Assembly (NCBI RefSeq): GCF_000341895.1
Contig: NC_020409.1
Coordinates: 2,850,001 to 2,882,000, forward strand
Length of the DNA: 32,000 nt
Direction of reading: 5' to 3'
From: Pseudodesulfovibrio piezophilus C1TLV30
GTDB lineage: Bacteria; Desulfobacterota; Desulfovibrionia; Desulfovibrionales; Desulfovibrionaceae
Of this stretch, positions 2,647-16,275 are shown one piece after another; position 1 is the stretch's first letter, and each line of letters opens with the position of its first letter. The notes under the pieces are model-generated. The model was not told the DNA's origin. It did no database searches and saw nothing but the letters and a program-made list of their open reading frames with translations. The position numbers and the translations under genes were made by a program.

Positions 2647-4314
2647 TTATTGTGCGTTCAGATCGTATGCGAGGACGACGGTCTTCCGTTTGGTAAAGCC
2701 CATGGAGCCGGGGAATGTATTGACGAGCACGCAGAGTTGTTTCTTGCCGTCATTGTTCAGGTCGGCCAGAGCTATATCGGAAACCTGCCCCCTGATGCGG
2801 CGGGTTTTCCATGCCAGGTTCATGCCTACACCATCCCAGGCCAGGGAGTGAATTTCACCCTGGGAGAAGTACTTGAAGCGTTCGAAAACCTGAGAGGCGA
2901 TGGACAGGTCCTTGTTTACCAGCAATTCGTATTTGTCCTTGGAGCTTAATCTTGCTGCTATCATGCGGATGGGAACATTATAGACGCTGACTTTTTCATC
3001 AACGGTTCCCGGTCCCATGCCCTGCTGCTTGTCACTGACCTCCAGACCAACGCCTGAACTGTTGTATGTGGCGTCGTCACTGGATGACAACCGTTCCATG
3101 GACTGGCTGTAGACCTTGAGTCTGTTGAAGTCGTCAAGAACAAGATATTTGTAGCCCAGCCCGTCAGGCAGGTAGAGCATGTTGAAGATGTTGCCGAATT
3201 CCGGGGTACTGATGGTTTCTCCCTCAACAAGTTCGCCGTTCTTGTAATAGGCTTCGTAGATTTTTCCTGCGAAGATATGTCTGCGGCCGATGCGCTGGAT
3301 CACCAAGGAAGGCTTGAAGAAAGGAGGCATGCGCAAGACGCCGAGGAATTGCTTGTAGTTTTTCAGCAAATATTTGAATTTTCCGTTTTCGAATGACAAA
3401 ATGTGGGATCGGGGCGTGCCTTCAGGAGCCTTGAGCGTAGAACGGTAGTATGCTTGATAGGATGCGACAACCAGTTCCGGGATTCCATCTTTGGTAACAT
3501 CCACGGCTTCAAGTCGCATGTAGGTGGTGCTGGGAGTCATTTCCATGGTATCCAGAAATTCCAGCTTTCCCTTATTGAAACGGTAGGCGGAAATACCCTT
3601 GGCCTGGAGAATGAATATTTCATTCTTGCCGTCATTATCGGCATCGGCCACCACCATGCTGGTGGAAAAGAAGCGGAATGTCTGGCTGCGCCAACGGCCT
3701 TGGTTTTCCGTGCCGCCTTCGTAGCGGAATTGCGGGTTCAGGGTGTCGGCATGAAATTCGTCGTTGTCAGCCTGAACGATTGAGGAATTGAGGGGGCTGC
3801 GAATCTGGTCTTCAATATCCGATCCTTTGCTTGCTTCTTCTGTCGTACTGTAACCGGGACGGTTAAACACGTCTCCCATGATGGCCTTGCTTTGTTCATC
3901 AAGCCATGGGGTAATTTCATCTATTCCCATCTGGCCTGATTTTTCCCATGTCTTTCCGTCACGGGTTGTGGCCGCCATATTCAAAGTGGCTTCTTTGCCA
4001 AGGATCGAAATAGTACCGCTGATGAGGTAATCCAGCTCGGAGCTGCGAAGAATGGAGATGGCTTCCGCTTTACCGGAAGGGACTTTGAGTCCCTGAACAA
4101 GTGCATCACCAGCCGGTTCGGCATATCCCGCCCATTCCAGATCATTATTGAGGCTGGCCTGAAAAGCCTTCGGGAAGTATGAGTATTTTTTTGGTCCGTT
4201 GTAGGTAAAGGGCATCACAGCATATTTTTTAGCCTGCTGGGCCATGGCCGGACCGGCCAACAACACAACAGCCAGCAAGGCGGTCATGGTGACGGCAAGA
4301 CGTCGATTCAACAT
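2647..4314 (-). CDS. Secreted FG-GAP/VCBS-repeat beta-propeller protein with an N-terminal alpha/beta domain; function unknown
   Basis: ORF track gives 2647..4326, but its first codon is TTG. GGAGGA sits 4 nt upstream of ATG 4314, giving MLNRRLAVTMTALLAVVLLAGPAMA|QQ, a signal peptide. Calcium-type FG-GAP/VCBS loops are repeated: ADADNDGKNEIF, DVTKDGIPELVV, DLNNDGKKQLCV. Confidence 0.8.
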   Translation of the reverse strand: MLNRRLAVTMTALLAVVLLAGPAMAQQAKKYAVMPFTYNGPKKYSYFPKAFQASLNNDLEWAGYAEPAGDALVQGLKVPSGKAEAISILRSSELDYLISGTISILGKEATLNMAATTRDGKTWEKSGQMGIDEITPWLDEQSKAIMGDVFNRPGYSTTEEASKGSDIEDQIRSPLNSSIVQADNDEFHADTLNPQFRYEGGTENQGRWRSQTFRFFSTSMVVADADNDGKNEIFILQAKGISAYRFNKGKLEFLDTMEMTPSTTYMRLEAVDVTKDGIPELVVASYQAYYRSTLKAPEGTPRSHILSFENGKFKYLLKNYKQFLGVLRMPPFFKPSLVIQRIGRRHIFAGKIYEAYYKNGELVEGETISTPEFGNIFNMLYLPDGLGYKYLVLDDFNRLKVYSQSMERLSSSDDATYNSSGVGLEVSDKQQGMGPGTVDEKVSVYNVPIRMIAARLSSKDKYELLVNKDLSIASQVFERFKYFSQGEIHSLAWDGVGMNLAWKTRRIRGQVSDIALADLNNDGKKQLCVLVNTFPGSMGFTKRKTVVLAYDLNAQ

Positions 4315-4462: not shown

Positions 4463-5740
4463 ATGAGTAATGAATACAGAACATTTCGACTTGTCTGTAC
4501 GGAAGAAGAGGTTCCTGTTGTCGAGGCCCTTCTTCATGCACAGGGATTTCGTTTCGAGCCGGAACCTTTTTATGCCATGGCCCGAAAATTGACGCATGAA
4601 CCCTTCCCTTTGGGTGAAAGCCTGGCCTCCCGGTTCGGTCGTATATACATACAAGATAGATCGTCCATGCTTCCGCCGCTCCTGCTCGCACCGCCTAACG
4701 GGGCTTCCGTGCTTGATATGTGCTCCGCTCCCGGCAGCAAGACGAGCCTGTTGTCAAAATTGGTTGGCAGGGAGGGATTTGTTTTTGCATCAGAGCCGTC
4801 GGCAGACCGTCTCGGAACACTGCGGGCCAATTTGAGGCGGACATCATCCGTCAATTCGGCAACAGCCAAATCAAAGGCGCAGGATCTGCCTTTCCCCGAT
4901 AATTCATGGGATTATATCCAGCTTGATCCGCCATGTAGTGGTTGGGGGACAGTCGACAAGAATCCTAAAGTCATGGAGCTGTGGTCAGAATCAAAAACAG
5001 CCCCTCTTATCGGGTTGCAGAAGACTCTTTTGGAAAAGGCCTCGGCCATGCTCAAGCCCGGTGGCACAGTTCTGTTCTCGACCTGTACGACAAATAAAGA
5101 AGAGAACGAGGAACAGGTGGCATGGGCCATTGATGCACTTGGTTTGGAGCTTGAGGCTCTTGAGCCGCCTCAGGGATTTGTCTTCGGCACACCCCAACTT
5201 CCCGGCATGGACGGAGTGCTCCGGGTCTCTGAAGACTCGGCAGGTCAGGGGTTCTTTTTGGCTCGGTTTCGCAAGCCTGGAGCCTCTTCAGAGGAAGAGG
5301 TGACTCTCGCGCCAGCGAAAGATCTTCCTGGGAAGCGGGTGGATTTGTCGCGTCTCAAAGGGGGGCGCTCCATGTCGCTGATCTCATTGCCCCCAGGTGA
5401 AACATTTGATTTCGGTGGGAAGGTTTATTTTCTGCATCAGGAGGCGCTCCGAAGGGTTCCCTCGTCACTTCGTTGGCAAGGGGCATTGCTCGGGAAGGTG
5501 TCCGGTCGTGGAGAGGGTGCGAAATTCCGACCGGATGGAATGGCCAAAGTGCTTTTACCGAAAGGAGGGGAGAGTGTGGATATCTTGAATGTGGAAGAAC
5601 CTCAGCCTATTGAGCAGTTGTTGACCGGACAAAGTCTTCCTTCCCCGGTAGGAAAGGCGAGCGTCGGCCTGTTTTTTCGAGGACTTTCTCTTGGTTGGCT
5701 TTCCCGAAAGGGGAGCAGGGTTATTCTCACTTCGAAATAG
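4463..5740 (+). CDS. RsmB/RsmF (NOL1/NOP2/Sun) family RNA cytosine-C5 methyltransferase
   Basis: ORF 4244..5740 trimmed to ATG 4463 (MSNEYRTFRL...), because the upstream extension overlaps the divergent gene. Motifs seen: DMCSAPGSKT (SAM motif I), DPPCSGWG (motif IV Cys), FSTCT (motif VI Cys). Confidence 0.85.
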   Translation: MSNEYRTFRLVCTEEEVPVVEALLHAQGFRFEPEPFYAMARKLTHEPFPLGESLASRFGRIYIQDRSSMLPPLLLAPPNGASVLDMCSAPGSKTSLLSKLVGREGFVFASEPSADRLGTLRANLRRTSSVNSATAKSKAQDLPFPDNSWDYIQLDPPCSGWGTVDKNPKVMELWSESKTAPLIGLQKTLLEKASAMLKPGGTVLFSTCTTNKEENEEQVAWAIDALGLELEALEPPQGFVFGTPQLPGMDGVLRVSEDSAGQGFFLARFRKPGASSEEEVTLAPAKDLPGKRVDLSRLKGGRSMSLISLPPGETFDFGGKVYFLHQEALRRVPSSLRWQGALLGKVSGRGEGAKFRPDGMAKVLLPKGGESVDILNVEEPQPIEQLLTGQSLPSPVGKASVGLFFRGLSLGWLSRKGSRVILTSK

Positions 5741-5790
5741 GTGTTATAAAACAGTATCTTGTGTGTGTTGAAAAATGTTAAGAAAAACCG

Positions 5791-5819
5791 TTGACAAAAG
5801 AAGAGACTGTGGGCAGTAT
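5791..5819 (+). promoter_or_regulatory. Candidate sigma70-type promoter P1 upstream of the tRNA operon
   Basis: Perfect -35 TTGACA (5791-5796), a 17-nt spacer, then CAGTAT (5814-5819). Confidence 0.35.
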
Positions 5820-5881
5820 CCCCTTCGCTGAACGCGGATGAGTTCCCCAGCAAATGGTTTGACTCCCCTGAAAAAAGAGGG

Positions 5882-5910
5882 TTGACAGAGTTGAACAGCC
5901 GGGATAAACA
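5882..5910 (+). promoter_or_regulatory. Candidate sigma70-type promoter P2 just upstream of tRNA-Val
   Basis: Second perfect TTGACA (5882-5887). The -10 is either GATAAA (5903-5908, 15-nt spacer) or TAAACA (5905-5910, 17-nt spacer). Transcription would start a few nt before the tRNA 5' end at 5923. Confidence 0.35.
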
Positions 5911-5922
5911 CACTCTTCCTGC

Positions 5923-5998
5923 GGGCGCGTAGCTCAGCTGGGAGAGCATCGGCCTTACAAGCCGAGGGTCACAGGTTCGAGCCCTGTCGCGCCTACCA
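5923..5998 (+). tRNA. tRNA-Val (anticodon TAC)
   Basis: Hand-folded cloverleaf. Acceptor GGGCGCG/CGCGCCT (G1-U72), D stem GCTC/GAGC, anticodon stem TCGGC/GCCGA with loop CTTACAA, T stem ACAGG/CCTGT with TTCGAGC loop, discriminator A, encoded CCA. Confidence 0.95.
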
Positions 5999-6041
5999 TA
6001 TTTGAAATAGAGCGTTTTAAAACGCTGTATTATACCAGTGC

Positions 6042-6118
<77 letters not shown>

Positions 6119-6127
6119 CTAAAGATC

Positions 6128-6165
6128 AAGGACATCAACTATTTAAGTTGGTGTCCTTTTTCTTT
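6128..6165 (+). terminator. Rho-independent terminator of the tRNA-Val/tRNA-Asp operon
   Basis: A 13-bp stem AAGGACATCAACT (6128-6140) / AGTTGGTGTCCTT (6146-6158, one G-U pair), loop ATTTA, then TTTCTTT. Confidence 0.8.
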
Positions 6166-6216
6166 GGATTATGTGTGGTCAAGGCGTGTGTAAAAAAATG
6201 TGTAAAAGGCACTTCA

Positions 6217-6256
6217 AAAGCCCCTGAAATTGAGTTTTCAGGGGCTTTCTTTTTTA
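6217..6256 (+). terminator. Second strong Rho-independent terminator
   Basis: Stem AAAGCCCCTGAAA (6217-6229) / TTTCAGGGGCTTT (6236-6248), loop TTGAGT, followed by CTTTTTTATTT. It lies inside the spurious N-terminal extension of ORF 6148..8052. Confidence 0.8.
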
Positions 6257-6480
6257 TTTCATCTATCATTTCAGGTGGATTCAGGCCTGTTTTCAAAACC
6301 TGTCAGGCACTATTTGCGGAAATCACCTTGTATTTGGCCGTCCCTGGCGTGCTTTTGACCGACATCGGACTGTATTTCACCGACACGCTGCGCGCATACC
6401 GCCATTTTCTTCAAAACCCCATGCTACGCTCTTCGCAAATACATGAAGGGCCGTCTGCTCAGTGGTCCGAAGGAGACTAT

Positions 6481-8052
6481 ATGAGCGTATATGAAGTGAA
6501 GTTGAAGCACGACCAGAGTGGTCGCATTGCGGAGAAAACAGAAACCGTCAAGGGCAAGTCCATCAAGTGGACCTACTCCTATGACAAAAAGGGCTGCCTG
6601 TTCGAGGCGCACCTGGACAACCGACTGGTCTGCCAGTGTCATTACGATAGGGACGGCAGGCGACAGCAGGATTACTTCCCCAGGACGCACGGAAGTCAGT
6701 TGCGGAACTACCACTACCGTATGGACAACCGACTGCAACAGGCCGGAAACAACGGCTACACCCATGACAAGCAGGGATTCAGGTCCATTTGGAATCATGA
6801 AGGCAAATACACGTTGTACAAGTATGCGCCGGATTACCGTCTGCTCAAAGTCGAGATACCGGACGACAAGGTCATATTCGAGTTTGCTCATGATGAAGAC
6901 GGCCAGCGTGAGTACAAGTATCGCAACGGCGAGGTTGTCGAGGCATACAAGTGGCTTGATTTCGTCCGGCTGGCTGGATTTCATGACGGCGAAGCTGGAT
7001 ATCGCTTCGCCTACGATGGTGATGAACGAACTCCCTATGCCATGCAGCGTGAGGACGGAGTCGTAGCCTACCTGTACTATGACCAGGTCGGCTCCCTGCG
7101 AGTGGTTGCCGACAAGTTAGGCAACGTGATAAAGGAGGTTCTGTATGATCCCTTCGGTGGCATCATCGAAGACTCCAATCCCGACTTGCGAATCCCCATC
7201 GGGTTTGCTGGTGGATTGCATGACCGAGACCTCGGCTTTGTCCGTTTCGGTTGGCGGGATTACGATACCTTTACCAGCCGTTGGACCGCTCCCGATCCCA
7301 TGGGGGATGCTGGTGGCGATGACGATTGGTATGGATACTGTCTTGATGATCCCGTAAACGGCAACGATCCACTTGGTCTGTTTTTGAATTGGTTGATTCA
7401 GCAAGGAACCAAGAAGGTACACAAGGTCATTAACCCCATGTCGCCTGAAAGGATCATCAAGGAAGAAGCAGATAAGGAAATCTCCCGCCTTGAAGAATAC
7501 GGAGATGACAATGCAACTGCTAAGCATCAGATTGAAAAGATGAAGCGGCTGAAAAAGAAAATGAACGAGGAAGGCCTGCCTTCAACATACGACTCCATTA
7601 AGAAGACTCTCAGGCTGAAACGTATATGGCCTACAACGAAGAGCCAATCAACGAGGACTACGGACGATGAAGAATGCACACCAGATCATAGGGGCAGGAA
7701 TTGTTTTCGGACTTGTATCACTGTGGTTTGGACTGACATCTGGAATCATTGCTGGCCTTGTTGTGTATTTGGGCCTGAGGGCTGCCACGAAGCAGGTCAA
7801 AACAGACTAGAAAAGGCCAACTGCCCATGTCGAGCAGTTGGCCGGAAAGGGTGCTCCCAACCATCTCGCTCCACCCCCGGACGATCGGATTTGCCGTGCG
7901 CGGCCATAAAAGATGAAAAAGGAGGAAAACGGATTCCGGTCCATCTGGTCGAACGGCGACATGTACCACCTGTACGAGTACGCGCCGGACTGCCGGCTGC
8001 TCAAAATGGAAGTGGAGAATCAAAATCGCGTCTTTACCTTTTGCCACGATGA
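6481..8052 (+). CDS. Short Rhs/YD-repeat core protein with a C-terminal variable (toxin-like) tip; the 3' end is uncertain and the credible coding part probably stops near 7670 after a frame change
   Basis: AAGGAG (6470-6475) lies 5 nt before ATG 6481 (MSVYEVKLKH...). YD repeats: YSYDKKG, HYDRDG, YTHDKQG, FAHDEDG, FAYDGDE, YYDQVGSLRVV. Core terminus: FGWRDYDTFTSRWTAPDP...WYGYCLDDPVNGNDPLGL (DPLGL = 7366..7380). The tip is FLNWLIQQGTKKVHKV...KMKRLKKKMNEEGLPSTYDSIKK. Beyond about 7600 the open frame becomes Cys/Arg/Trp-rich and runs through another conserved gene. Confidence 0.75.
   Translation: MSVYEVKLKHDQSGRIAEKTETVKGKSIKWTYSYDKKGCLFEAHLDNRLVCQCHYDRDGRRQQDYFPRTHGSQLRNYHYRMDNRLQQAGNNGYTHDKQGFRSIWNHEGKYTLYKYAPDYRLLKVEIPDDKVIFEFAHDEDGQREYKYRNGEVVEAYKWLDFVRLAGFHDGEAGYRFAYDGDERTPYAMQREDGVVAYLYYDQVGSLRVVADKLGNVIKEVLYDPFGGIIEDSNPDLRIPIGFAGGLHDRDLGFVRFGWRDYDTFTSRWTAPDPMGDAGGDDDWYGYCLDDPVNGNDPLGLFLNWLIQQGTKKVHKVINPMSPERIIKEEADKEISRLEEYGDDNATAKHQIEKMKRLKKKMNEEGLPSTYDSIKKTLRLKRIWPTTKSQSTRTTDDEECTPDHRGRNCFRTCITVVWTDIWNHCWPCCVFGPEGCHEAGQNRLEKANCPCRAVGRKGCSQPSRSTPGRSDLPCAAIKDEKGGKRIPVHLVERRHVPPVRVRAGLPAAQNGSGESKSRLYLLPR
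7667..7810 (+). CDS. 47-aa hydrophobic small protein, copy A (candidate immunity or accessory membrane protein)
   Basis: Hand-found; too short for the ORF track. Sequence: MKNAHQIIGAGIVFGLVSLWFGLTSGIIAGLVVYLGLRAATKQVKTD. A paralogue at 10011..10154 differs at 18 sense codons, 9 synonymous and 9 conservative aliphatic swaps. The ATG overlaps a TGA (ATGA, 7667-7670) that closes the alternative frame of the Rhs tip. Confidence 0.8.
   Translation: MKNAHQIIGAGIVFGLVSLWFGLTSGIIAGLVVYLGLRAATKQVKTD
7815..7843 (+). other. Stem-loop after small ORF copy A
   Basis: A 9-bp stem GGCCAACTG (7815-7823) / CAGTTGGCC (7835-7843) with an 11-nt loop. No U-run follows, so its role as a terminator is uncertain. 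Confidence 0.4.
7841..7929 (+). repeat. Cassette leader repeat, copy 1 (89 bp, includes the start codon and first codons of the downstream ORF)
   Basis: Aligns without gaps to 9545..9633, with 78 of 89 positions identical by hand count: GCCGGAAAGGGTGCTCCCAACCATCTCGCTCCACCCCCGGACGATCGGATTTGCCGTGCGCGGCCATAAAAGATGAAAAAGGAGGAAAA. Confidence 0.85.
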
Positions 8053-8620
8053 GCAGGGCCGGCGGGTCGCCAAGTATTTCAACGGCCAACTTGTCGAGGC
8101 CTATGGGTGGCTCGACTTCATCCGGCTCGGCGCGTTCCACGACGGGCGCATGAGATACGAGTTCGGCTACGCGGATAACGCACGCCTTCCCTCGGCCATG
8201 CGGCGCGAAGATGGGGCCGTCTTCCCCCTGCACTACGACCAGGTCGGTTCTCTGCGTGTGGTTGCCGACGCGGATGGCGACGTGATAAAGGAAATCCTGT
8301 ACGATCCCTTCGGCGGGACCATTGAGGACACCAACCCCGGTTTCCGCGTCCCCCTCGGCTTTGCGGGCGGTCTGCACGACTGGGATTTGGGCTTCGTCCG
8401 CTTCGGTTGGCGGGACTACGACACCTTCACCGGCCGGTGGACCGCGCCTGATCCCATCGGGGACAAGGGCGGCGATCCGGATTGGTATGGCTATTGCCTC
8501 GATGATCCGGTCAACGGGGTGGACCCGTTGGGGCTGGAAGGCGGATTTTGGGGAGGAATGAAAAAAAATCGGAGCTGGGTTCGGAGAATTGTGGGACAAG
8601 ACCCCTGCGGGTATAGGTGA
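7913..8620 (+). CDS. Second Rhs-core protein (last ~200 aa of the core only) with its own start codon; ends at an in-frame TGA
   Basis: MKKEEN then GFRSIWSNGDMYHLYEYAPDCRLLK...YDQVGSLRVVADADGDVIKEILYDPFGG...FGWRDYDTFTGRWTAPDP...WYGYCLDDPVNGVDPLGL (DPLGL = 8522..8536). It is collinear with residues from GFRSIW onward of the 6481 protein. Confidence 0.8.
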   Translation: MKKEENGFRSIWSNGDMYHLYEYAPDCRLLKMEVENQNRVFTFCHDEQGRRVAKYFNGQLVEAYGWLDFIRLGAFHDGRMRYEFGYADNARLPSAMRREDGAVFPLHYDQVGSLRVVADADGDVIKEILYDPFGGTIEDTNPGFRVPLGFAGGLHDWDLGFVRFGWRDYDTFTGRWTAPDPIGDKGGDPDWYGYCLDDPVNGVDPLGLEGGFWGGMKKNRSWVRRIVGQDPCGYR

Positions 8621-8956
8621 GGCGTTACCAAGGGGACGAAGGGTGCTGGAGAAGCACTGAGCAAGACGGCGGAGGCCTTTGCAACCAACAAGGATTTGCA
8701 AAAATATACGGCGATATCCTTGGTGGCAGGTGCGCTGCCCATTGTTGCAGCCGTCGGCACGGCAGCAACACCAGCCATAGCCGGTGCTGCCATGCAGCAC
8801 CCGGATAAGCTGGCTGCCGGTTCAAAGGCCATTGTAGATATAGCTTCTGGCTGGTTTGATCCGGGGCCGCCTCCGGCCTCGGTACCCGGTTATGCCGGGA
8901 GTGGTGCCAAATGGATGTACGACAAATATAAAGAAAAAAGTAGGGAGACTACATGA
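8621..8956 (+). pseudogene. In-frame continuation of the second Rhs tip beyond the TGA at 8618-8620 (Ala/Gly-rich hydrophobic toxin-like tip); either interrupted or recoded
   Basis: Same frame as 7913..8620. Hand translation after the TGA: GVTKGTKGAGEALSKTAEAFATNKDLQKYTAISLVAGALPIVAAVGTAATPAIAGAAMQHPDKLAAGSKAIVDIASGWFDPGPPPASVPGYAGSGAKWMYDKYKEKSRETT*. The ORF-track start at 8696 is TTG, and the first in-frame ATG lies well inside the hydrophobic segment (within AAMQHP). Confidence 0.5.
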
Positions 8957-9147
8957 AAATCAAGCCAGCAGAGATCGTCATGGGGATTATACTGGTCTCT
9001 ATGGGCGTGATGGGCATGGGCGAAAAGGAATTGTTTCATTACGATGTTTCTATTCCATACCCGGAAGTCTTCAGTGCCGCGTGCTTGGTTGCCGGGATTG
9101 TTTGGCTTGTTGTTCCTTGGTTTCTTACATCTCGGAAAAAGCAATAA
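8953..9147 (+). CDS. Small 2-TM membrane protein, candidate immunity protein for the preceding tip
   Basis: 64 aa: MKIKPAEIVMGIILVSMGVMGMG...AACLVAGIVWLVVPWFLTSRKKQ, with two hydrophobic helices. Its ATG overlaps the upstream stop (ATGA, 8953-8956). Confidence 0.65.
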   Translation: MKIKPAEIVMGIILVSMGVMGMGEKELFHYDVSIPYPEVFSAACLVAGIVWLVVPWFLTSRKKQ

Positions 9148-9213
9148 CAATTGCAAAGGCCTTTGACGGACTCGTTGTTGGGGCCTTTGACTTAGCTTAC
9201 TGGTTTATTTTGA

Positions 9214-9245
9214 AAGGGCTGCCTCGGCAGCCCTTGTCCGTTTTA
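9214..9245 (+). terminator. Candidate Rho-independent terminator after the immunity-like gene
   Basis: Stem AAGGGCTG (9214-9221) / CAGCCCTT (9228-9235), followed by GTCCGTTTTA. Confidence 0.5.
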
Positions 9246-9305
9246 TCCCTTGTCAGCATCGCCGAAATAAGGGCGGTTCCTGCAAATCGGTCGAATTTGG
9301 CCAAA

Positions 9306-9333
9306 CCGGACCGAAACATGGCTTTCGGTCCGG
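9306..9333. other. Perfect 11-bp stem-loop in the non-coding spacer
   Basis: CCGGACCGAAA (9306-9316) / TTTCGGTCCGG (9323-9333), loop CATGGC. Confidence 0.6.
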
Positions 9334-9363
9334 TTCCGGCAAACGTGTCAATTTCGTGGAACT

Positions 9364-9394
9364 GGTCGTTTTTGATCAAGAACGACCGTTTTTT
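9364..9394 (+). terminator. Candidate Rho-independent terminator inside the non-coding spacer
   Basis: Stem GGTCGTT (9364-9370) / AACGACC (9381-9387), followed by GTTTTTT (9388-9394). Confidence 0.55.
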
Positions 9395-9544
9395 CAATGT
9401 CCGATCCGGCGATCTGAAAGAGTTGTCAGCAAGCCCAAGAAAAGGATTCAAAGATTGTCATCAACTGTTCGGACGCCCCCGAGCTAATCGGTATCGCCAA
9501 AAACGGAAGTTGTTGGCGCGCAACGCGAGACAATCTTTCTCCTC

Positions 9545-9633
9545 GCCGGAAAGGGTACTCCTAACCATTTCGCCCCACCCCCGGACGATCAGATTTGTCG
9601 TGCGCGGCTAGAAAGAATGAAAAAGGATGAAAA
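9545..9633 (+). repeat. Cassette leader repeat, copy 2
   Basis: GCCGGAAAGGGTACTCCTAACCATTTCGCCCCACCCCCGGACGATCAGATTTGTCGTGCGCGGCTAGAAAGAATGAAAAAGGATGAAAA. 78/89 identical to 7841..7929. Contains ATG 9617. Confidence 0.85.
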
Positions 9634-9988
9634 AGAGAAGGTTGTACCAGGAAATCAGCAGAAAACGCAGGGCTCTCAAAAAAAGGGAAAAGGACTGTTG
9701 AGCTACCAATTCGTATCAGATGGGAAAGTGATTGCCGATGGGCTCACGCATCCTGTGACTCGTCGAGGATGGAGTGGAAGCGACGACTACTCGGTGCCAC
9801 TGATCATGGTCTTCGATCTGCCATTCCCCGGAGCATCAGACAGTCTGATGCTAGGTTTGGAAGTTGTTGAGCCATTTTCATTTATGGAGGAGTACAAGGG
9901 GCAAACGTCGATAGTAATCACACCAAATTATGAGCCAAAGGCTGGCAAATGTTATGACGAAGATCTGCGAATTAAGCAGTCAAAGTAG
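9617..9988 (+). CDS. Hypothetical 123-aa protein of the third cassette (Lys/Gln-rich N-terminus, then a compact domain); no recognisable family
   Basis: ORF track. It starts MKKDEK inside leader copy 2, paralleling MKKEEN of the 7913 ORF, then diverges completely. No TM segment and no YD repeats. Confidence 0.55.
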   Translation: MKKDEKEKVVPGNQQKTQGSQKKGKGLLSYQFVSDGKVIADGLTHPVTRRGWSGSDDYSVPLIMVFDLPFPGASDSLMLGLEVVEPFSFMEEYKGQTSIVITPNYEPKAGKCYDEDLRIKQSK

Positions 9989-10010
9989 ATAGTCTGTTAA
10001 GTTGCAGGCG

Positions 10011-10154
10011 ATGAAAAATGTACACCAGATCATAGGGGCAGGAGTTGTTTTCGGACTTGTATCGCTGTGGTTTGGGCTGACATCTGGAGTCGTTGTTGGC
10101 CTCGTTGCCTATCTAGGTCTGAGAGTTGCAACAAAGCAGATAAAAGCAGACTAA
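10011..10154 (+). CDS. 47-aa hydrophobic small protein, copy B
   Basis: Hand-found: MKNVHQIIGAGVVFGLVSLWFGLTSGVVVGLVAYLGLRVATKQIKAD. 38/47 aa identical to copy A (7667..7810). Half of the differing codons are synonymous. Confidence 0.8.
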   Translation: MKNVHQIIGAGVVFGLVSLWFGLTSGVVVGLVAYLGLRVATKQIKAD

Positions 10155-10158: not shown

Positions 10159-11441
10159 GGTTCATCCGGCTAAGGCATACTTCGCTTTGTGAATTTTCAT
10201 GATCCTGAGCTTGAAGCACTCGGTGTCCCGATAGCCATAGGCTTGCCGTTCTTCGATTGGGCCTGATGAGATGGGGGTATCGTAGTAAGCGAGAATGTCG
10301 AAATGGTATGCGGCAAGCGCCTTCGCCATACCCCGCAAAGGGCGTATCTCAGAGGCTTCGGCCCCGACGATCCAGTCATTGATGATCTTCTCTGCCGTCT
10401 CCTTGTCCGGCTGGGACCAGAGTTGACGCAAGTCCTCTTTCAGATAGTAGTCTGTCGCCAAAGGTTTGTTCAGCCGCAGCGCTTCATCCAAGCGTTCCTT
10501 TTCATCGCGGTTTTCATCCAGATTTTCCGGGTTTTTCAGAAGAATCCATCAAGTCCCTTTGACCGCCTTCCTTTCAAGTGGCGAGGTGAGTTCCCGGAAG
10601 AGCTGGCGACGTATCTGTGTAATCTTTTCATTCATCAGCTTGACCACATGAAACCGGTCAAACACGACAGCCGTGTTCGGTAGGTTCTCCATGACTGCGC
10701 TGATATAACCGGCGTTCATGTCCTTCGCTACAGCCGGAATTTTGGCTCTTGTCTTCTTGAGACGTTCCCGGAACGGGAGGAGTGTTTCACGGCTTTGACC
10801 TTCGCCAACAAAAACGACTGCGTCGTTTTCAAAGTCCATAACCAATGTTAAAGACTTTTGCCCCTTCCGGACACTGATTTTGTCGATGGCGATATACTTG
10901 AGCTCCCCCAGCTTGGGCTTTGAGAAGCGGTGAACCAGATATCGCTTGAAGATTGATTTGATGGTATCCCACCCAACACCGATCAGGTCAGCCACATCTT
11001 GTATTGTCATCATTTTTGCCAGGGCGAGAGCATATCACTCAAAAGCTTTCGTATACCAGTTCCTGGAGTCGGCGATCTGAATGTGATCAAGCGAATGATG
11101 CCGCAAGTGCGACATCCTACCGGTTAGACAGGAATAACCAGCCAGACAGGCTTGAAACCGATGGGCACAGTCTGAACCCATCGCTCAGCAAAGCCGTAGC
11201 GAATGATGTCTCTGGAATGGCAGCAAGGGCAACGAATCAAGTCGTCCTTGAGCTGTACTTTCAGGATAATGTTGCCTGCGATGAAATCCTGTCGAACATG
11301 GTCGTAGCCTCGCAGGCCGAACGCATGGCAGATGAAACTCGTGGACATGGCGATAACTCCCTCCGCTGGTCGGTGATGCTTCCAACGGTTGGAGGCCATG
11401 TCCTTTCATTTTGTCAAAAGTACGCTTGAACCGGATGTACC
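10159..11441 (-). mobile_element. Decayed ISL3-family insertion sequence
   Basis: Imperfect terminal inverted repeats: GGTTCATCCGGCTAAGGC (10159-10176) versus the reverse complement of 11424-11441, GGTACATCCGGTTCAAGC (14/18). AAAAGG is present on both flanks (10155-10160 / 11443-11448), so the exact ends are ambiguous by 2 nt. The interior carries a fragmented ISL3 transposase. Confidence 0.75.
10162..11399 (-). pseudogene. ISL3-family transposase, broken into at least three frames or segments
   Basis: The N-terminal zf-ISL3-like piece is 11124..11399 (...LIRCPCCHSRDIIRYGFAERWVQTVPIGFKPVWL). The DDE core is 10549..11013 (IAIDKISVRKGQKSLTLVMDFEND...AVAKDMNAGYISAV...VVFDRFHVVKLMNEKI). The C-terminal piece is 10162..10491 (...ISSGPIEERQAYGYRDTECFKLRIMKIHKAKYALAG). 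That last piece lacks the usual GxNNKIK segment. In-frame stops separate the pieces. Confidence 0.8.
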
Positions 11442-11470: not shown

Positions 11471-11797
11471 TCATACTGTTCTGATCTCTAATACTTTGAG
11501 ATGATCTCTTACTGAATCCATGCCGCGAACATATCGCTCGGTGATTTTCAGATTCTTATGTCTGAGCGTGTCCCGAATTGCGACCACAGGCACGTCATGC
11601 TTGGCGAGTCTTGAGGCTGTAAGTCCTCGGATGCCAGGACAACCAAACTTTTTCTCCTCTGCTTCGTCGCACAAGGCTTATGGTAATTTCCGGTTCTCAG
11701 TGTATGGCTTTCCTTGGTGTTGTCCTTTGGGTTGAATGAAGACCCATTTATTGACCGTTGTGGTGCGGTGCTTTTTGAGGGCTTCGGTCAACTCCAT
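11471..11797 (-). pseudogene. Tyrosine recombinase (phage-type integrase) C-terminal remnant with an in-frame stop
   Basis: Hand translation: MELTEALKKHRTTTVNKWVFIQPKGQHQGKPYTENRKLP*ALCDEAEEKKFGCPGIRGLTASRLAKHDVPVVAIRDTLRHKNLKITERYVRGMDSV.... It retains an LRH...ERY (His/Tyr) box, but the first HxxR His is replaced (PGIR). TAA at 11680-11678. No N-terminal SAM-like or core-binding domain. Confidence 0.6.
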
Positions 11798-11938: not shown

Positions 11939-12478
11939 ATGTACGGGAAACCGATGCTATCAGAGTTATTCACATCAAAAACAAGAATAAAAGTGCTGCT
12001 TAAGCTTTTTTTGAACCCAGAAGTATCTTGTTATCTTAGGGGATTAGCTGCTGAGTTTTCTCAGTCTCCCAATGCGCTTAAGTGTGAATTGGATCGGTTG
12101 AGTGAAGCGGGGTATTTGGAACGAGAGAAAAAAGGGCGAAGCGTCTACTTCAAGGCAAATAAAGCTCATCCTTTCTTCCCGGAAATCAGCTCCATTGTTC
12201 GTAAGACTTGCGGTATAGATAAATTAGTTAATGAGGTTGTTTCTAGCTTAGGAGATGTTCATGCAGTTTATATTTTGGATGACTATGCTCAAGGAAATGA
12301 TTCTGGATTGATTGATGCTTTGATTGTCGGAAACATAGATAAAAGTCGTTTAGATGAGCTTCGTAGTATTGTGGAAAGTAAAGTGGGGAGAAAGGTGCGC
12401 ACCATGGATGTAAACCCAGAAGAATTTGAAGAGAGTCGGAGTGTGTTTTTGAGTAGGCCGAATTGGAAGGTTTTATAG
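11939..12478 (+). CDS. Winged-helix (ArsR-like) transcriptional regulator with a C-terminal nucleotidyltransferase-fold-like domain
   Basis: 179 aa. N-terminal part: TRIKVLLKLFLNPEVSCYLRGLAAEFSQSPNALKCELDRLSEAGYLEREKKGRSVYF (wHTH). C-terminal part: VHAVYILDDYAQGNDSGLIDALIVGNID, resembling a degenerate minimal NTase strand-loop-strand. Confidence 0.6.
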   Translation: MYGKPMLSELFTSKTRIKVLLKLFLNPEVSCYLRGLAAEFSQSPNALKCELDRLSEAGYLEREKKGRSVYFKANKAHPFFPEISSIVRKTCGIDKLVNEVVSSLGDVHAVYILDDYAQGNDSGLIDALIVGNIDKSRLDELRSIVESKVGRKVRTMDVNPEEFEESRSVFLSRPNWKVL

Positions 12479-14316
12479 CTGTGACCAGTCTTCAGGAAAA
12501 TGCGGTGGAGCAAAAAAACTTTCGGTTACTGTGGAATATTAAAAGGATTTTTTCTTTTTTACAGAGCAAAGATAGAAAACGTTTTTTTGTGTTGACGTTT
12601 GGCGGTGTTGGGGTTGCGATTGTAGATGCCATTTCAGTCGCTCTAGTAGCGCTAATGGTTACTGTTTTAAATGATCCATCGACGATAATGCAAAGCGAAA
12701 TTGGTGTTCGATTGTGCAGTATATTCCCAGTCTTTCTCTCCTTTGAGAACAGAGCAATCATCGTGGGCGTGGGAATGCTTGCTACATTTTTTATTATTAT
12801 CAAAAATAGTTGTCGCGCTTTATTCGAATATAGAGTTGTTCGATTTGCAGCTGGGATGGATAGGCTAATAGGTAAGCATCTTTTAGGGCGTTTTTTGAAT
12901 ATGCCATACGGTTGGCATATTGAACAGAATTCGTCTGATCTCTTACTTGCAATTAGCTGGCGGTCGCATTTTGGCTCAGTGATGCTTTTATCTTTGATAA
13001 ATTTATTTGTGGATTGCGCATTTATATTATTTGTTCTGGCCTCTCTTTTTGTTGTTGCGCCCGTAATTTCTTTTTTTGTCGTCTTTTTTGTGGGGGGAGG
13101 AGGCTGTTTTATATATCGAAAAACTCGTACAGTTCTTGATCAGGAGGTTGTATTGGGTCAAGAGTATAAAATGAAAATAAGCCAAATTTCACTGAAAATA
13201 ATACAAGGTGTCAAGGATGTCATAGTTTTTTCTAAAGAGAGAGAGTTTATTAACGAATATGATGCATCTGCACAGCGGCAAGAACGAATATTAGCACGTC
13301 AACGACTCTTTACAAATATACCTATGCAAGTCTTGGAAGCATTTGGTTTTACCATGCTTGTTTTTTCTATGTTTGCATTACTTTTTATTTTTCCAATGCC
13401 TAGAGGGAAGGTTATTGGTATTGTAGTGCTTCTCGCTGTAACAGCATGGAGAGTTCTTCCTGTAGCATCACGGTTATTGGTCTCCATCTCTTCTTTAAGA
13501 AGCTCTCTCCCTTATTTGTCTAAAATATTTGATTATTTAGAGATGCAAAAAGCTAACCCATTGCTTAATCCTGCATCTGGTACTTTACTGAATTGGAAGC
13601 AAGATATCGTTTTTGACAAGGTTGATTTCCGTTATAAAAAAGGGCTCCCTAAGGCGGTGCATTCTATTGATTTTCGGATACAAAAAGGGAGCGTCTTCGG
13701 TGTTGTGGGCCAGTCTGGAGCAGGGAAGAGTACTCTTATTGATCTTCTTGTGGGATTACTTACACCGGATTCCGGAGAAATCCTGTTAGATGGGAAAAGG
13801 ATTTCTGACCTTGATTTAGGCCGGTTGCGGAATCTGTTTGGGTATGTGTCTCAGCACCCCTACATAGTTGATGCATCTTTGGCGGAGAATGTTGCTTTTG
13901 GATTGAGTGGTCGAGCTATAGATATGGAGCGGGTCAAAACTTGCTGTCAGATGGCTGCCGTTGATTTTTTAGACGAACTTCCCGATGGTTTTAATACACG
14001 AATTGGTGAGCGGGGTGTGAGGCTTTCCGGTGGGCAGCGGCAGCGAATTTCCATCGCACGGGCTTTGTATCATAAACCGGAGCTACTGATCTTTGATGAG
14101 GCTACAAGCGCCCTTGATAAAGGGACAGAGTTAGCTATTCGTGAAACGATTTATTCACTGAAAGGGAATGTTACATTACTATTAGTAGCACATCGTATGA
14201 GTACTCTTGAAGGGTGCGATTCTATTCTTTGGTTGGATAAAGGGAAAGTTCATAAAATCGGAACACCTGAGGAAATATTGCCATTGCTTGATCGTTTATC
14301 AATAAAAAAACAGTAA
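12463..14316 (+). CDS. Fused TMD-NBD ABC exporter (MsbA/PglK-like type I exporter)
   Basis: Six hydrophobic helices followed by Walker A GQSGAGKST, signature LSGGQRQR and Walker B LLIFDEATSALD. There is no in-frame ATG near the 5' end. The start is TTG 12463 or, perhaps more likely, GTG 12481 just after the upstream stop. Confidence 0.85.
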   Translation: MEGFIAVTSLQENAVEQKNFRLLWNIKRIFSFLQSKDRKRFFVLTFGGVGVAIVDAISVALVALMVTVLNDPSTIMQSEIGVRLCSIFPVFLSFENRAIIVGVGMLATFFIIIKNSCRALFEYRVVRFAAGMDRLIGKHLLGRFLNMPYGWHIEQNSSDLLLAISWRSHFGSVMLLSLINLFVDCAFILFVLASLFVVAPVISFFVVFFVGGGGCFIYRKTRTVLDQEVVLGQEYKMKISQISLKIIQGVKDVIVFSKEREFINEYDASAQRQERILARQRLFTNIPMQVLEAFGFTMLVFSMFALLFIFPMPRGKVIGIVVLLAVTAWRVLPVASRLLVSISSLRSSLPYLSKIFDYLEMQKANPLLNPASGTLLNWKQDIVFDKVDFRYKKGLPKAVHSIDFRIQKGSVFGVVGQSGAGKSTLIDLLVGLLTPDSGEILLDGKRISDLDLGRLRNLFGYVSQHPYIVDASLAENVAFGLSGRAIDMERVKTCCQMAAVDFLDELPDGFNTRIGERGVRLSGGQRQRISIARALYHKPELLIFDEATSALDKGTELAIRETIYSLKGNVTLLLVAHRMSTLEGCDSILWLDKGKVHKIGTPEEILPLLDRLSIKKQ

Positions 14317-14439
14317 TTGTATTTACATAAATATGGTGGCTAATCGAATTTACCCACATTTTTTGGGATATATTACTCACATGAGCGAGTTACGGTTTTT
14401 TGAAGAGAATCTATGATGGTTTATGGAGAAAATTAAAGA

Positions 14440-15186
14440 ATGGGATCTTTTTTTATCGATAGAAAATACCGTTTGCCACGTAAATGGTCTAATAAAGAGT
14501 TGAGGAAGATTGCTCCTTTGATCAAAGGAGAGGTCGTCAATGTTAGTGCGTGGAAAGACTCTGATAAAGAAGGTGGTTTTTATTGCGATTATTTCCGCAA
14601 TGCTTCTCACTATAGCATCACTAATTACAAGGCTGAAGCGCGAGGATTTCAGGGGAAGGAAGGCGAGATCTTTTTGGATTTGGAACAAGTACTCTCGGGA
14701 GAATTGGTACAGAGGTTTGACGTTGCTTTTAATCATACAACTCTGGAGCACACGTTCGACGTCTTTACCGCATTTTCAAATTTATGTTCACTTTCCAAGG
14801 ATATGGTCATAGTTGTGGTGCCTCATCTACAACAGATGCACAGTACATTCGGAGATTTTTGGCGATTTACACCAGAAAGTGTGGAAAAATTGTTTTTGAT
14901 GAATGGGCTGAAATTAGTTTACCTAAGCTTTAATGAGCACTGTGACTCTTCTGTGTATATTTTTGCAGTGGGGTCACGGTTTCCTGAACGATGGCGAAAG
15001 ACCATAGGCAATGATTGTAGTTATATGTCCAAATATCAACCTCATGATGGAATGGAAGCCTTTATTGGTTGTCAGGCGGTGACTAATCTTGGGTACAGAG
15101 CAGGTCTTGTGCTGAAGTCCTTCCAATCTATTTTAACAAGGTTGTATAAAAAACTTGGTACATTGATGGGAAAGAGTTTCATATAA
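14440..15186 (+). CDS. Probable class I SAM-dependent methyltransferase (divergent motif I)
   Basis: 248 aa. FDVAFNHTTLEHTFDVFTAFSNLCSLSKDMVIVVVP...FWRFTPESVEKLFLMNGL matches the post-motif-II organisation of Methyltransf_11-like enzymes. The N-terminal glycine-rich motif is not canonical. Confidence 0.5.
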   Translation: MGSFFIDRKYRLPRKWSNKELRKIAPLIKGEVVNVSAWKDSDKEGGFYCDYFRNASHYSITNYKAEARGFQGKEGEIFLDLEQVLSGELVQRFDVAFNHTTLEHTFDVFTAFSNLCSLSKDMVIVVVPHLQQMHSTFGDFWRFTPESVEKLFLMNGLKLVYLSFNEHCDSSVYIFAVGSRFPERWRKTIGNDCSYMSKYQPHDGMEAFIGCQAVTNLGYRAGLVLKSFQSILTRLYKKLGTLMGKSFI

Positions 15187-15210
15187 AAAGATGTCTCTAC
15201 GGGGTAGAAA

Positions 15211-16266
15211 TTGTTGTCTGGAGAGGAGTTAAATGTGGCGAATATTTCAGGGGATATAATCAAAGTCCGTGGGTGGACCTTTGGTAAAGAAGATCATTGT
15301 TGGCTAGCCCAAAGCTGGCCTGATGAGTATTACGAGACCCCCTATTGTTGCGGTTGTGGGGCTTCCATGACTCCTTGTTTTCAGATTTCCAATTCCGCTG
15401 GAGCCTTAGGATGTGTCACTAGTATTTGCCAAAGGTGTGGTTTTGTAAAAAAAACCAGTCAGTTGGGTGGTCAGTATATATCGCAGCACTTTGCTAAAAG
15501 ATGGCTGATCAGAAGAGATGATGTTCTGAGAGAGTCGCTATATCCCTATACCAAATTAGCACCTTTAGTTAAAGCTGGAGGCCGAGTCTTGGATCTTGGT
15601 TGTGGTATCGGGGATCGCCTGCTGCCATTTCATAACAATGGTTTTGACGTATATGGCGTTGACCCTTCAGAGCATCGTACCCAAATAGCGACAACTCGAA
15701 TGCGCAATATCCTGGTAGGGGATGGTGAAACCTACCTTGCCAACAATCATGAAAAATTTGATCTTATATATCTTTTTAATGTGCTTCAATTCTTGGTTAA
15801 TCCCTTTGCGGTTATCCAAGCGGCTCTTGAGCACGTGGTTGATGGTGGCTTTCTGTTCTTTTCAGTGAGCAATTTTCAGGAGCATAATATGGTCCAGTTG
15901 GCTCATCTGGGAGTCATCGTTTCTTATCTTAGTCCTTATTCTGTCGGGCGTTTTTTACAAACTTCGAATTTAGATAGTTGTGTTGTTGAATACAGTCATT
16001 CTCCGTTTGAATGCATTATTCGCAAAGGGAAAGGGGCGCAAGGCAATCAAAATATGCATCAAGCATCTCCTTGTCAGTTGACTAATATTGTGGATTCAGC
16101 TCGAACAAGTTCTGTGTATTCTCGATTTCCTTACATGGTTCGGAGAAGTGTTGAGTTAAATTCACCTGGAAGGACAATTGAATTTCATCGGCGCTTTATT
16201 CGAAAAATAAAGGCTCCCCTAACATTCATGTATGACACAGAATATATTCCTGTGCTTCTGAAGTAG
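15211..16266 (+). CDS. Class I SAM-dependent methyltransferase with an N-terminal Cys-rich (zinc-ribbon-like) segment
   Basis: Motif I RVLDLGCGIGDRL, then FDVYGVDPS and FDLIYLFNVLQFLVNP. N-terminal cysteines at YCCGCG...CQRCG. The ORF-track start is TTG. GTG 15235 has a better SD (GGAGAGGAG). Confidence 0.75.
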   Translation: MLSGEELNVANISGDIIKVRGWTFGKEDHCWLAQSWPDEYYETPYCCGCGASMTPCFQISNSAGALGCVTSICQRCGFVKKTSQLGGQYISQHFAKRWLIRRDDVLRESLYPYTKLAPLVKAGGRVLDLGCGIGDRLLPFHNNGFDVYGVDPSEHRTQIATTRMRNILVGDGETYLANNHEKFDLIYLFNVLQFLVNPFAVIQAALEHVVDGGFLFFSVSNFQEHNMVQLAHLGVIVSYLSPYSVGRFLQTSNLDSCVVEYSHSPFECIIRKGKGAQGNQNMHQASPCQLTNIVDSARTSSVYSRFPYMVRRSVELNSPGRTIEFHRRFIRKIKAPLTFMYDTEYIPVLLK

Positions 16267-16275
16267 GTGTTGGTT

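Follow-up and report, generated by a model that had tools for sequence, protein, structure and literature searches.

Bacterial teneurin-like proteins (TLPs; PDB 9IFO/9PT5) are, by sequence, the closest solved relatives of the short Rhs proteins described in this article. TLPs comprise ~2100-2200 residues and have, unlike the short family, an N-terminus of the signal or lipoprotein kind, a TIP domain, a propeller and a shell that is complete and closed. The match (E-value 7e-35, ~30% identity) is confined to the final 290 residues of this shell, running as far as DPSGL. As in the family, the tips of TLPs (~15 kDa) are polymorphic and accompanied by immunity genes (PMC13018210). The T6SS Rhs effectors used for comparison (P. 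protegens RhsA, 7Q97; P. laumondii Rhs1/Tre23, 7PQ5; A. baumannii Tse15, 8UXT) have in common with the family the YD hairpins, an aspartyl-protease plug (DPxG...DPxGL), a variable tip behind this motif, an immunity gene further downstream and orphan tips carrying homology to the 3' core. However, their shells of ~700-1100 residues are sealed by two plugs and enclose the toxin, whereas the family core has 300 residues and lacks an N-terminal plug, a PAAR, VgrG-binding or clade domain, an N-terminal cleavage motif and any T6SS linkage. By Foldseek, the family core is closer to teneurins than to these effectors.

TcC proteins (TccC3; 4O9X, 6H6E) share with the family a partial YD shell, a protease plug, a hypervariable tip and the presence of several paralogues per genome, and match the family core at an E-value of 1e-4. 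Their core is larger (~680 residues) and requires TcB, encoded alongside, and TcA; such partners were not found for the family. In Enterobacteria, orphan rhs-CT/immunity modules and C-terminal displacement were reportedly described by Jackson et al. in 2009.

The locus examined here lies in Pseudodesulfovibrio piezophilus C1TLV30, within a window (the whole stretch of DNA analysed) of 32,000 nucleotides. It is read, with a probability of roughly 60%, as a rearrangement-prone toxin/immunity island adjoining tRNA-Asp and built on a family of short, stand-alone Rhs proteins. This family is large, so far undescribed and carried by Desulfovibrio-like bacteria; its importance lies in a 300-residue core too small for toxin enclosure, against every studied Rhs protein.

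Setting of the Locus

On its left the locus has a conserved border formed by a pair of tRNA genes (5923..6118), tRNA-Val(TAC) at 5923-5998 and tRNA-Asp(GTC) at 6042-6118, both on the plus strand and detected by ARAGORN and Rfam, so that the array lies directly downstream of tRNA-Asp, as a preliminary description of this DNA had stated. Two terminator-like hairpins (6128-6158 and 6217-6248, plus strand) follow 3' of the tRNAs; because of them the stretch 6148-6480, in frame with gene 1, is considered non-coding, which fits the family N-terminus and ribosome-binding site that place the start at 6481. On the opposite side are an ISL3-family transposase split in three ORFs (10162-10491, 10549-11013 and 11124-11399, spanning 10162..11399 of the minus strand; Pfam DDE_Tnp_ISL3, HTH_Tnp_ISL3, Zn_ribbon_ISL3) and a C-terminal fragment of a tyrosine recombinase (11471..11674, minus strand; Pfam Phage_integrase, E-value 5e-4, below cut-off). 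The recombinase fragment marks the right edge of the island, beyond which a polysaccharide cluster of 40% GC begins with a step in composition; the short-Rhs genes of a related locus, L001, are likewise flanked by integrase fragments. The other genes of the window, ~20 kb, are intact. The absence of PAAR and VgrG noted in the preliminary description holds for the main ORFs of the window (~180 aa or more) and extends to T6SS domains.

The tRNA-adjacent position and the insertion-sequence and integrase debris would suit a local accident, in which this strain deleted the 5' two-thirds of a normal long rhs at the tRNA-Asp site. This account is given hardly any weight, and a local 5' deletion is ruled out by relatives with the same short start and by the recurrence of the N-terminus in dozens of unlinked loci. 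In the nearest relative (L034, 99.5% identical) the gene at the tRNA-Asp locus starts equally short. In another species, Pseudodesulfovibrio sp. L014, the same tRNA pair and an RsmB/F gene flank a short-Rhs array (68% nucleotide identity between the flanks), and this syntenic locus contains short Rhs copies only, no long one.

Gene 1 and Its Partner

Gene 1 starts with the ATG at 6481, behind the ribosome-binding site AAGGAG (6470-6475). Its core (6481..7380, plus strand) constitutes the entire conserved portion of the short-Rhs family according to profile matches, the family alignment, AlphaFold2, Foldseek and the PDB sequence match, and comprises 300 aa of YD beta-hairpins and an aspartyl-protease plug (DPMGD ... 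DPLGL). The terminal DPLGL is encoded at 7366-7380, the whole motif being WYGYCLDDPVNGNDPLGL (7327-7380). The core scores 55.8 bits against TIGR03696 (RHS repeat-associated core; cut-off 32.5) and 57.7 bits against PF25023 (TEN_YD-shell; cut-off 50), the latter over model positions 597-866 of 909; further Pfam or NCBIfam matches are absent. The YD/RHS repeats are thus represented in gene 1 by PF25023, and by PF05593 in many family members. In gene 1, no N-terminal trafficking module (PAAR, VgrG-binding, signal peptide, LXG etc.) was found, and the first beta-strand of the AlphaFold2 model begins at residue 4. These results agree with the preliminary description, which recognized ~300 aa of YD/Rhs repeats ending at 7366..7380 before a Lys/Glu-rich tip; it missed the frameshifts carried by both toxin genes of the locus.

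The tip of gene 1 (7381..7670, plus strand) is Lys/Glu-rich and helical, belongs to the P0001 type and, like most family tips, matches no known toxin domain. Its intact end was taken from P0001 and L034; mapped against them, a single C has dropped out at 7630-7631 (ancestral tgg ccc tac), 13 codons ahead of the ancestral stop. The ancestral tip would end in ...IWPYNEEPINEDYGR and the stop TGA at 7668-7670, while frame 1 as sequenced is open until 8052. The protein has ~395 residues. The ATG of the following gene overlaps the ancestral stop (ATGA) and begins a 47-aa membrane protein (7667..7810, plus strand), which probably confers immunity to the P0001-type tip and recurs behind it in L001, L003, L034 and the window. 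A GC-rich hairpin (7815..7843) ends this unit.

A Family of Short Rhs Proteins

The family comprises over 1000 proteins of Pseudodesulfovibrio and related Desulfovibrionaceae. The best 120 of these homologues all measure 311-593 aa and share a fixed start, a core formed by residues 1-300 and interchangeable tips, and the short architecture is also found at 44-53% identity in Salidesulfovibrio, Humidesulfovibrio and Desulfovibrio. One transcriptome assembly made with Trinity contains a complete family ORF (P0119). The two DPxG motifs hardly vary, D296, P297, G299 and L300 being at least 90% conserved in the family alignment, and at least 20 tip classes occur on one core. Family loci are 2-5 kb insertions amid housekeeping genes or next to tRNAs and integrases, made up of one full gene and truncated core ends; within 10 kb of them there is no conserved neighbour and no linked secretion gene.

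According to the usual view of short Rhs proteins (bioRxiv 10.1101/2024.02.26.582050), every short copy, gene 1 included, would be silent and serve as a cassette for recombination with a full-length rhs or teneurin-like gene elsewhere in the genome. Truncated cores are indeed plentiful at these loci and both local toxin genes are broken. However, no long protein is among the 120 best matches (down to 55% identity) in databases which include complete Pseudodesulfovibrio genomes. Long relatives of the core are at most 46% identical, a divergence that makes them unfit for homologous exchange, and the three that can be named (a Pseudomonadota MAG, a Desulfobacteraceae MAG and an unplaced repeat protein) fall outside Desulfovibrionaceae. 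Moreover, all 29 full copies that were examined keep the 300-aa boundary and have the ATG and ribosome-binding site at matching positions, and residues 1-97, the part missing from orphans, are under purifying selection (dN/dS 0.26, compared to 0.16 for residues 98-300). The cassette view is therefore held to be very unlikely: gene 1 and the family are not orphans because they have their own start, their own ribosome-binding site and a record of selection. Of the two options in the preliminary description, a stand-alone short class is retained for gene 1 on the strength of its homologues, fixed start, 29 copies and selection, and an all-orphan array is disfavoured. Gene 1 is a complete yet frameshifted member of the family and not a deletion remnant.

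Predicted Structure of the Core

The core of gene 1 was modelled as a monomer with AlphaFold2 (mean pLDDT ~90 for residues 1-270; means of 10-residue blocks 74-98) and resembles a teneurin shell, with which it superposes in Foldseek at 2.5 A over 280 columns. The model aligns to ~15% of the solved shells (target-normalised TM-score 0.14-0.20). The family core corresponds to the final third of a YD shell together with the protease plug: the proteins consist of ~200 residues of YD beta-hairpins (about one shell turn), a plug of ~95 residues ending in DPxGL and a tip of 40-290 residues. The two DPxG motifs match a two-motif protease signature (PMC8636562).

A closed, toxin-enclosing beta-cocoon is not formed by these 300 residues, given the portion of PF25023 that they span, and the preliminary claim that 200-300 aa cannot build one is borne out. 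In the model, this piece leaves sheet edges exposed. To our knowledge, all Rhs, TcC and teneurin-like toxins of solved structure have closed shells.

The free edges and the way the model superposes on the equivalent region of closed shells would suit a split shell, in which the short protein supplies the C-terminal third and the plug of a cocoon whose remainder comes from a separate conserved protein (cf. TcB/TcC) or from self-association. The several paralogues per genome, with differing tips and up to 6 loci in D. caledoniensis, would also fit one shared partner. Nevertheless, no YD-repeat partner was found within 10 kb of any locus, and the named long relatives belong to other taxa; a split shell is considered unlikely.

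Orphan Modules Downstream of Gene 1

The tandem array of toxin cassettes proposed in the preliminary description resolves into one complete gene, one 5'-truncated orphan and one truncated immunity gene. The latter two are preceded by copies of an 89-nt leader containing ATGAAAAAGGA, at 7841..7929 and 9545..9633 (both plus strand, 88% identical); copy 1 comprises 72 untranslated nt, an ATG and five further codons (MKKEEN). It joins the truncated core at 7930, and L034 is identical as far as 7929 and differs beyond.

In gene 2 (7913..8536, plus strand) the leader start codon is joined to core residues 98-300 (7931-8536), with 71-76% nucleotide identity to gene 1. It scores 65.7 bits against TIGR03696, so that both genes pass the RHS-core profile, and 43.7 bits against PF25023, under the cut-off of 50. 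Its start, the ATG at 7913, has no good ribosome-binding site. With a 5'-truncated core, a foreign leader and a position downstream of a complete gene, features which gene 1 does not show, gene 2 is a 5'-truncated orphan of the short gene; comparable truncated cores with different break points occur in at least 20 related loci. Gene 2 and these related core ends are of the enterobacterial orphan rhs-CT type (3' core fragment, alternative tip and immunity gene behind a main gene), with the difference that the main gene served here has merely 300 residues plus the tip.

The earlier reading of gene 2 as the last ~200 core residues with a different tip stands, except that this tip extends to 8956 and contains two indels. 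It is glycine/alanine-rich and membrane-like (8537..8956, plus strand; P0059 type, 84% identity to P0059). Relative to P0059 it has one extra base in the A8 run at 8561-8568 and lacks one at about 8624, with a stop arising at 8618-8620; ORF 8696-8956 is the remainder of the tip. A 64-aa membrane protein (8953..9147, plus strand; ribosome-binding site AGGGAG), whose start overlaps the tip stop (ATGA), is the probable immunity partner of P0059-type tips and recurs behind them in L003, L009, L016, L026 and the window.

A 400-nt spacer with two terminator-like hairpins (9214-9235 and 9363-9388, plus strand) leads to gene 3 (9617..9988, plus strand), in which the leader start and ~20 codons precede the C-terminal 96 residues of a P0004-tip immunity protein (49% identity to residues 81-176 of L001:12095-12631). 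This third cassette does share the leader, as described before, but it is no toxin: it is a truncated orphan immunity gene from which the N-terminal membrane anchor is missing. Its homologues stand behind P0004-type tips in six places, and no such tip is present at this locus. A second copy of the 47-aa immunity gene, without a toxin, follows at 10011..10154 (plus strand; 81% aa identity).

Possible Mode of Action

Variable tips with putative toxicity are followed by genes with a putative protective role, and the tip/downstream-gene pairs are conserved between loci, three of them recurring in 4-6 loci each; the preliminary description had missed the small membrane ORFs as conserved partners of particular tips. 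Autocleavage, a chaperone role, toxicity, immunity and export are inferred. The plug would cut after DPLGL and release the tip, and the open partial shell, unable to enclose the tip, may act as a built-in chaperone that keeps hold of it or, alternatively, dock onto a partner. The small gene behind each tip would shield sister cells. Tips could be exchanged when the conserved 3' core recombines with the 5'-truncated orphan copies downstream. Envelope-acting tips suggest delivery between cells, by a route that would be encoded away from the locus.

Instead of being delivered, the short Rhs protein might stay in its producer as an intracellular toxin-antitoxin or abortive infection system, e.g., during phage attack or for island addiction. 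The lack of a signal peptide or trafficking domain, with the core beginning at residue 4, the lack of linked secretion genes and the location of certain loci in integrase-flanked islands near BREX-like genes are compatible with this role. However, one tip class is a Tlde1/YkuD domain, whose target, peptidoglycan, is out of reach for a cytoplasmic protein, and some partners are small membrane proteins or, as for P0004-type tips, carry an N-terminal membrane anchor. In addition, orphan-tip arrays and surplus immunity genes are a hallmark of cell-cell competition, and phage records contain no family match; an intracellular role is thus judged improbable, and the toxin/immunity island remains the preferred reading.

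As a tentative extension of that reading, an open 300-residue fragment of a YD shell with a protease plug might be a self-sufficient carrier of polymorphic toxins, exported by Desulfovibrionaceae without PAAR, VgrG, signal peptide or linked apparatus, or such fragments might assemble with each other or with a partner into a modular shell. If this were true, encapsulation would not be needed for Rhs-type toxins.

State of the Island

The local island appears to be decaying: the tip of gene 1 carries one frameshift and the orphan tip two, an immunity gene is truncated, and the insertion sequence and integrase are fragmentary. Each of the three local indels falls within a homopolymer run, which makes sequencing error a possible source of them. 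The three small membrane immunity genes at the locus are intact.

Short Rhs cores and their family

The two cores that the preliminary description had placed in this array are real and far above chance. Gene 1 lies 3' of a tRNA pair (tRNA-Val, 5923-5998; tRNA-Asp, 6042-6118) that is followed by two terminator-like hairpins; it has an AAGGAG ribosome-binding site at 6470-6475 and an ATG at 6481, and its 6481-7380 part encodes 300 residues of YD hairpins with the terminus WYGYCLDDPVNGNDPLGL. It scores 55.8 bits with TIGR03696 (RHS-associated core; cut-off 32.5) and 57.7 bits with PF25023 (teneurin YD shell; cut-off 50), in the latter case covering only model positions 597-866 of 909. The gene 2 ORF (7913-8620) also passes the TIGR03696 profile, with 65.7 bits.

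A search of 5.8 billion proteins returned 1032 matches, the best 120 of which were analysed. These 120 proteins all fall between 311 and 593 aa and are 55-97% identical across the core; most come from Pseudodesulfovibrio, a genome having several paralogues, and the databases give them generic labels. In nearly all aligned sequences the core corresponds to residues 1-300, the consensus start being M-x-x-Y-x-x-x-L-x-H-D-x-x-G-R-I-V-E-K, and past DPxGL the sequences split into tips of 40-290 residues, with at least 20 unrelated types. In a second, filter-free search against 1.8 billion cluster representatives, Salidesulfovibrio, Humidesulfovibrio and Desulfovibrio yielded proteins of this short architecture with 44-53% identity, and long Rhs/teneurin-like proteins (1100-3700 aa) were matched only at 33-46% identity; the three long relatives that carry a name are a Pseudomonadota MAG protein, a Desulfobacteraceae MAG protein and an unplaced repeat protein.

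Short Rhs proteins are usually regarded as unexpressed spare cassettes (bioRxiv 10.1101/2024.02.26.582050). This view fits the present family poorly because 29 full-length copies from ~20 loci keep the start codon in register with a GGAG-type ribosome-binding site 5-9 nt upstream, pairwise comparison of 24 copies gives a dN/dS of 0.26 for residues 1-97 (exactly the part absent from the orphan cassettes, i.e., 5'-truncated core ends with alternative tips) and 0.16 for residues 98-300, and one complete family ORF (P0119) occurs within a Trinity transcriptome assembly. Literature searches on short Rhs proteins or T6SS in Pseudodesulfovibrio gave nothing specific; no published description of a stand-alone short Rhs family was found, short Rhs proteins being mentioned only as unexpressed cassettes.

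A sister group of ~50% identity (P0125, P0129 and P0130; loci L029/L030) has an additional N-terminal region of 80-105 residues with the conserved pattern (K/N)WI(Q/R)Y(A/E)DG(T/V)(F/Y)EPVR ... WW.V..P..W.P. This extension, which had no significant Pfam match in the three proteins, might be a trafficking domain; no secretion genes were found at the two loci.

Structural features of the short core

An AlphaFold2 model built with a 120-sequence alignment has a mean pLDDT of 79.6, and over residues 1-270 the means of 10-residue blocks range from 74 to 98 (average ~90). It contains ~25 beta-strands from residue 4 onward and, in the tip, three helices; confidence is low near the cleavage motif. With Foldseek, the model superimposed on teneurin YD shells at their C-terminal part (2.5 A rmsd across 280 columns; E-value 1e-22). 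The bacterial teneurin-like protein 9IFO was among the ten top matches with 30% identity, T6SS Rhs and TcC shells matched more weakly, and in each case only 13-24% of the target is covered. Sequence comparison with solved structures gave the bacterial teneurin-like protein as the best relative, the match (E-value 7e-35) lying in its last 290 shell residues.

In the family alignment, D272-P-x-G and D296-P-x-G-L are nearly invariant and correspond to the two-motif aspartyl-protease signature of Rhs1, where the second aspartate is required for C-terminal cleavage (PMC8636562). From the fold matches and the DPxG motifs, the family protein consists of ~200 residues of shell wall, a protease plug and a tip, a make-up that is unable to close a cocoon.

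Tips, partner genes and delivery

Some of the tips suggest action at the cell envelope: in one class the tip is a Tlde1/YkuD L,D-transpeptidase-like domain whose score exceeds the Pfam cut-offs, and many are glycine/alanine-rich segments of the membrane type. Together with the partners encoded next to the tips, which are membrane or anchored proteins, this argues for delivery between cells. Pfam searches with the gene 1 tip, the P0059-type tip of gene 2 and the membrane partners gave nothing significant. The pairing of tip and partner is kept across loci, with the P0001-type tip followed by a 47-aa protein in four loci, the P0059-type tip by a 64-aa protein in five loci and the P0004-type tip by a ~178-aa anchored protein in six places. 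Downstream of the main gene lie truncated core ends that bear other tips; these cores are broken at residues 83, 105, 133, 152, 218, 254, 262 and 270. Judged from sequence, the family probably behaves as a polymorphic toxin system, with a constant 5' part, many tips, orphans and tip-specific partners; self-cleavage would take place at DPLGL, and tips would be exchanged through recombination.

The preliminary description had also stated that no trafficking domain occurs in the window, and PAAR, VgrG and T6SS domains were indeed absent from its main ORFs (~180 aa or more); a linked secretion gene was found neither here nor within 10 kb at any examined locus. Elsewhere, the P0059-type tip was detected only in short Rhs proteins and orphans of Desulfovibrionaceae and on no other delivery platform.

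Structural studies of Rhs toxins, Tc toxins and teneurin-like toxins take the closed cocoon, which shields the producer and carries the unfolded toxin, as the central element of the system. Here, a family that retains only the last third of a shell is under selection and in its population genetics behaves like a working polymorphic toxin system. If functional, it would represent a minimal Rhs unit and point to a further export route in sulfate reducers, and it poses the question of what the YD wall does when nothing can be enclosed; the point of interest is what use one third of a shell is to a toxin. For annotation purposes, ~400-aa proteins of Desulfovibrionaceae that are labeled "RHS repeat-associated core" are not to be treated as fragments.

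A C-terminus of the form [W/Y/F]-G-[R/K] (WYGR, GYGR, FWGR, DYGR) was observed in 15 of ~118 tips belonging to at least seven unrelated classes, including P0001, P0011, P0024, P0038, P0069, P0073, P0096, P0097 and P0101, as well as in sister-clade P0129 and the restored gene 1 tip of the window (7632-7667). Either a C-terminal signal common to these tips or a constraint at the junction to the overlapping downstream gene could account for it.

Probable decay of the array in the window

In the window the locus is probably in decay, with the small membrane-type immunity genes preserved. The gene 1 tip is of the P0001 type, which ends intact in P0001 itself and in L034 (a metagenome contig that matches window 4664-7929 at 99.5% identity and has the same tRNA flank and gene start) as ...IWPYN(D/E)...EDYGR, its TGA overlapping the ATG of the 47-aa membrane protein. 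One C is missing from the window tip at 7630-7631 (GGCCCTAC to GGCCTAC), and the frame therefore stays open until 8052. L034 is intact at this site and lacks an A at window position 7273, within the core; independent, apparently inactivating indels are present in both nearest relatives, the window copy and L034.

The core part of gene 2 (7931-8536) corresponds to gene 1 residues 98-300 with 71-76% nucleotide identity, and between residue 98 and the tip end at 8938 gene 2 shares 84% identity with P0059, except for 19 out-of-frame codons. Its tip frame is broken by an extra A in the A8 run at 8561-8568 and a missing base at ~8624, hence the stop at 8618-8620; ORF 8696-8956 encodes the rest of the P0059-type tip, and a 64-aa membrane ORF (8953-9147) overlaps its stop. 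Gene 3 (9617-9988), previously listed as a third toxin cassette, turned out to be homologous to the partner of the P0004-type tip: the leader is joined here to the C-terminal 96 residues of that partner (49% identity), which makes gene 3 a truncated orphan immunity gene and not a toxin. It is followed by a second copy of the 47-aa gene (10011-10154) and, 3' of this, by an ISL3 transposase split into three parts and a fragment of an integrase. All three local indels sit in homopolymer runs; since ~20 kb of other window genes are undamaged, real decay is more likely than sequencing error.

The 89-nt leader, which includes the ATG and five more codons, is present twice (7841-7929 and 9545-9633) and joins the Rhs core after codon 6 and the immunity fragment after about codon 20. 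L034, 99.5% identical to the window as far as the leader, carries it at 3178-3310, joined after about codon 20 to unrelated sequence; taking window and L034 together, the leader with its start codon breaks off at two points and continues into three different sequences. No copy was found in 27 genome loci and no exact 30-mer match in metagenome contigs, and comparison with Rfam offered no explanation. The leader may be the 5' end of another gene or a recombination hot spot.

Related loci and genomic context

The array could have been derived from a long rhs gene by 5' deletion, a possibility addressed at locus L014, a complete Pseudodesulfovibrio genome whose RsmB/tRNA flank shares 68% nucleotide identity with the window. 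There, the tRNA-Val/tRNA-Asp pair precedes two inserts with partial tRNA-Asp copies at their borders; the array comes next and has three full short genes, of which one is frameshifted, and two truncated genes. Since no long rhs gene exists at this syntenic locus, gene 1 as a 5' deletion of a long rhs gene is ruled out; the stand-alone reading put forward in the preliminary description survived this comparison, L014 having only short copies there. In L014 (NZ_CP182342, 3692-9103) partial tRNA-Asp 3' ends recur at 7636-7689 and 9029-9103, which suggests a tandem integration of two elements, the tRNA lying on one side and the Rhs array on the other. In the window, no second tRNA-Asp 3' end marks an island border.

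When ORFs from 28 loci were clustered all against all, only the core, antisense artefacts and immunity genes were recovered, and no conserved neighbour; among called genes, the contexts are housekeeping genes or integrases. Phage records gave no family match, and plasmid records only distant Gram-positive or Streptomyces YD proteins. At L001 (17733-21383) the short-Rhs island adjoins DUF4007 and BrxC/PglY-like genes, suggesting a defence-island neighbourhood.

A conserved region ~150 nt upstream of each full short-Rhs gene in L001, L003-L016, L027 and L006 comprises, in order, a CTGTCAAG box, AAAACCGGGGTTATGCTG..CGGATT, a hairpin (UUCCCGGGG-loop-CCCUGGGAA), CGAAAC, GGAG and ATG; RNAalifold predicts 12 pairs, 8 with compensatory changes. 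It may be a shared regulatory 5' leader. The upstream sequences of window gene 1 and of the P0011 loci are different, and a relationship between this region and the leader/spacer of the window was rejected, as nhmmer gave no window match.

At the left end of the window, two overlapping plus-strand ORFs of 235-237 aa (49-762 and 420-1127) had no Pfam match and lie opposite the probable DctM gene of a TRAP transporter encoded on the minus strand (DctQ, 1028-1516; DctP, 1565-2581), so that they are likely antisense artefacts. At the other end, after the island, 12400-31000 has 38-44% GC, compared with 50-58% upstream, and every ORF is intact. This block encodes an ABC exporter, methyltransferases, NeuB, UDP-GlcNAc 2-epimerase, a cytidylyltransferase, a capsule-synthesis protein, GT4 glycosyltransferases and asparagine synthase, and is probably an acquired nonulosonic-acid/capsule cluster.
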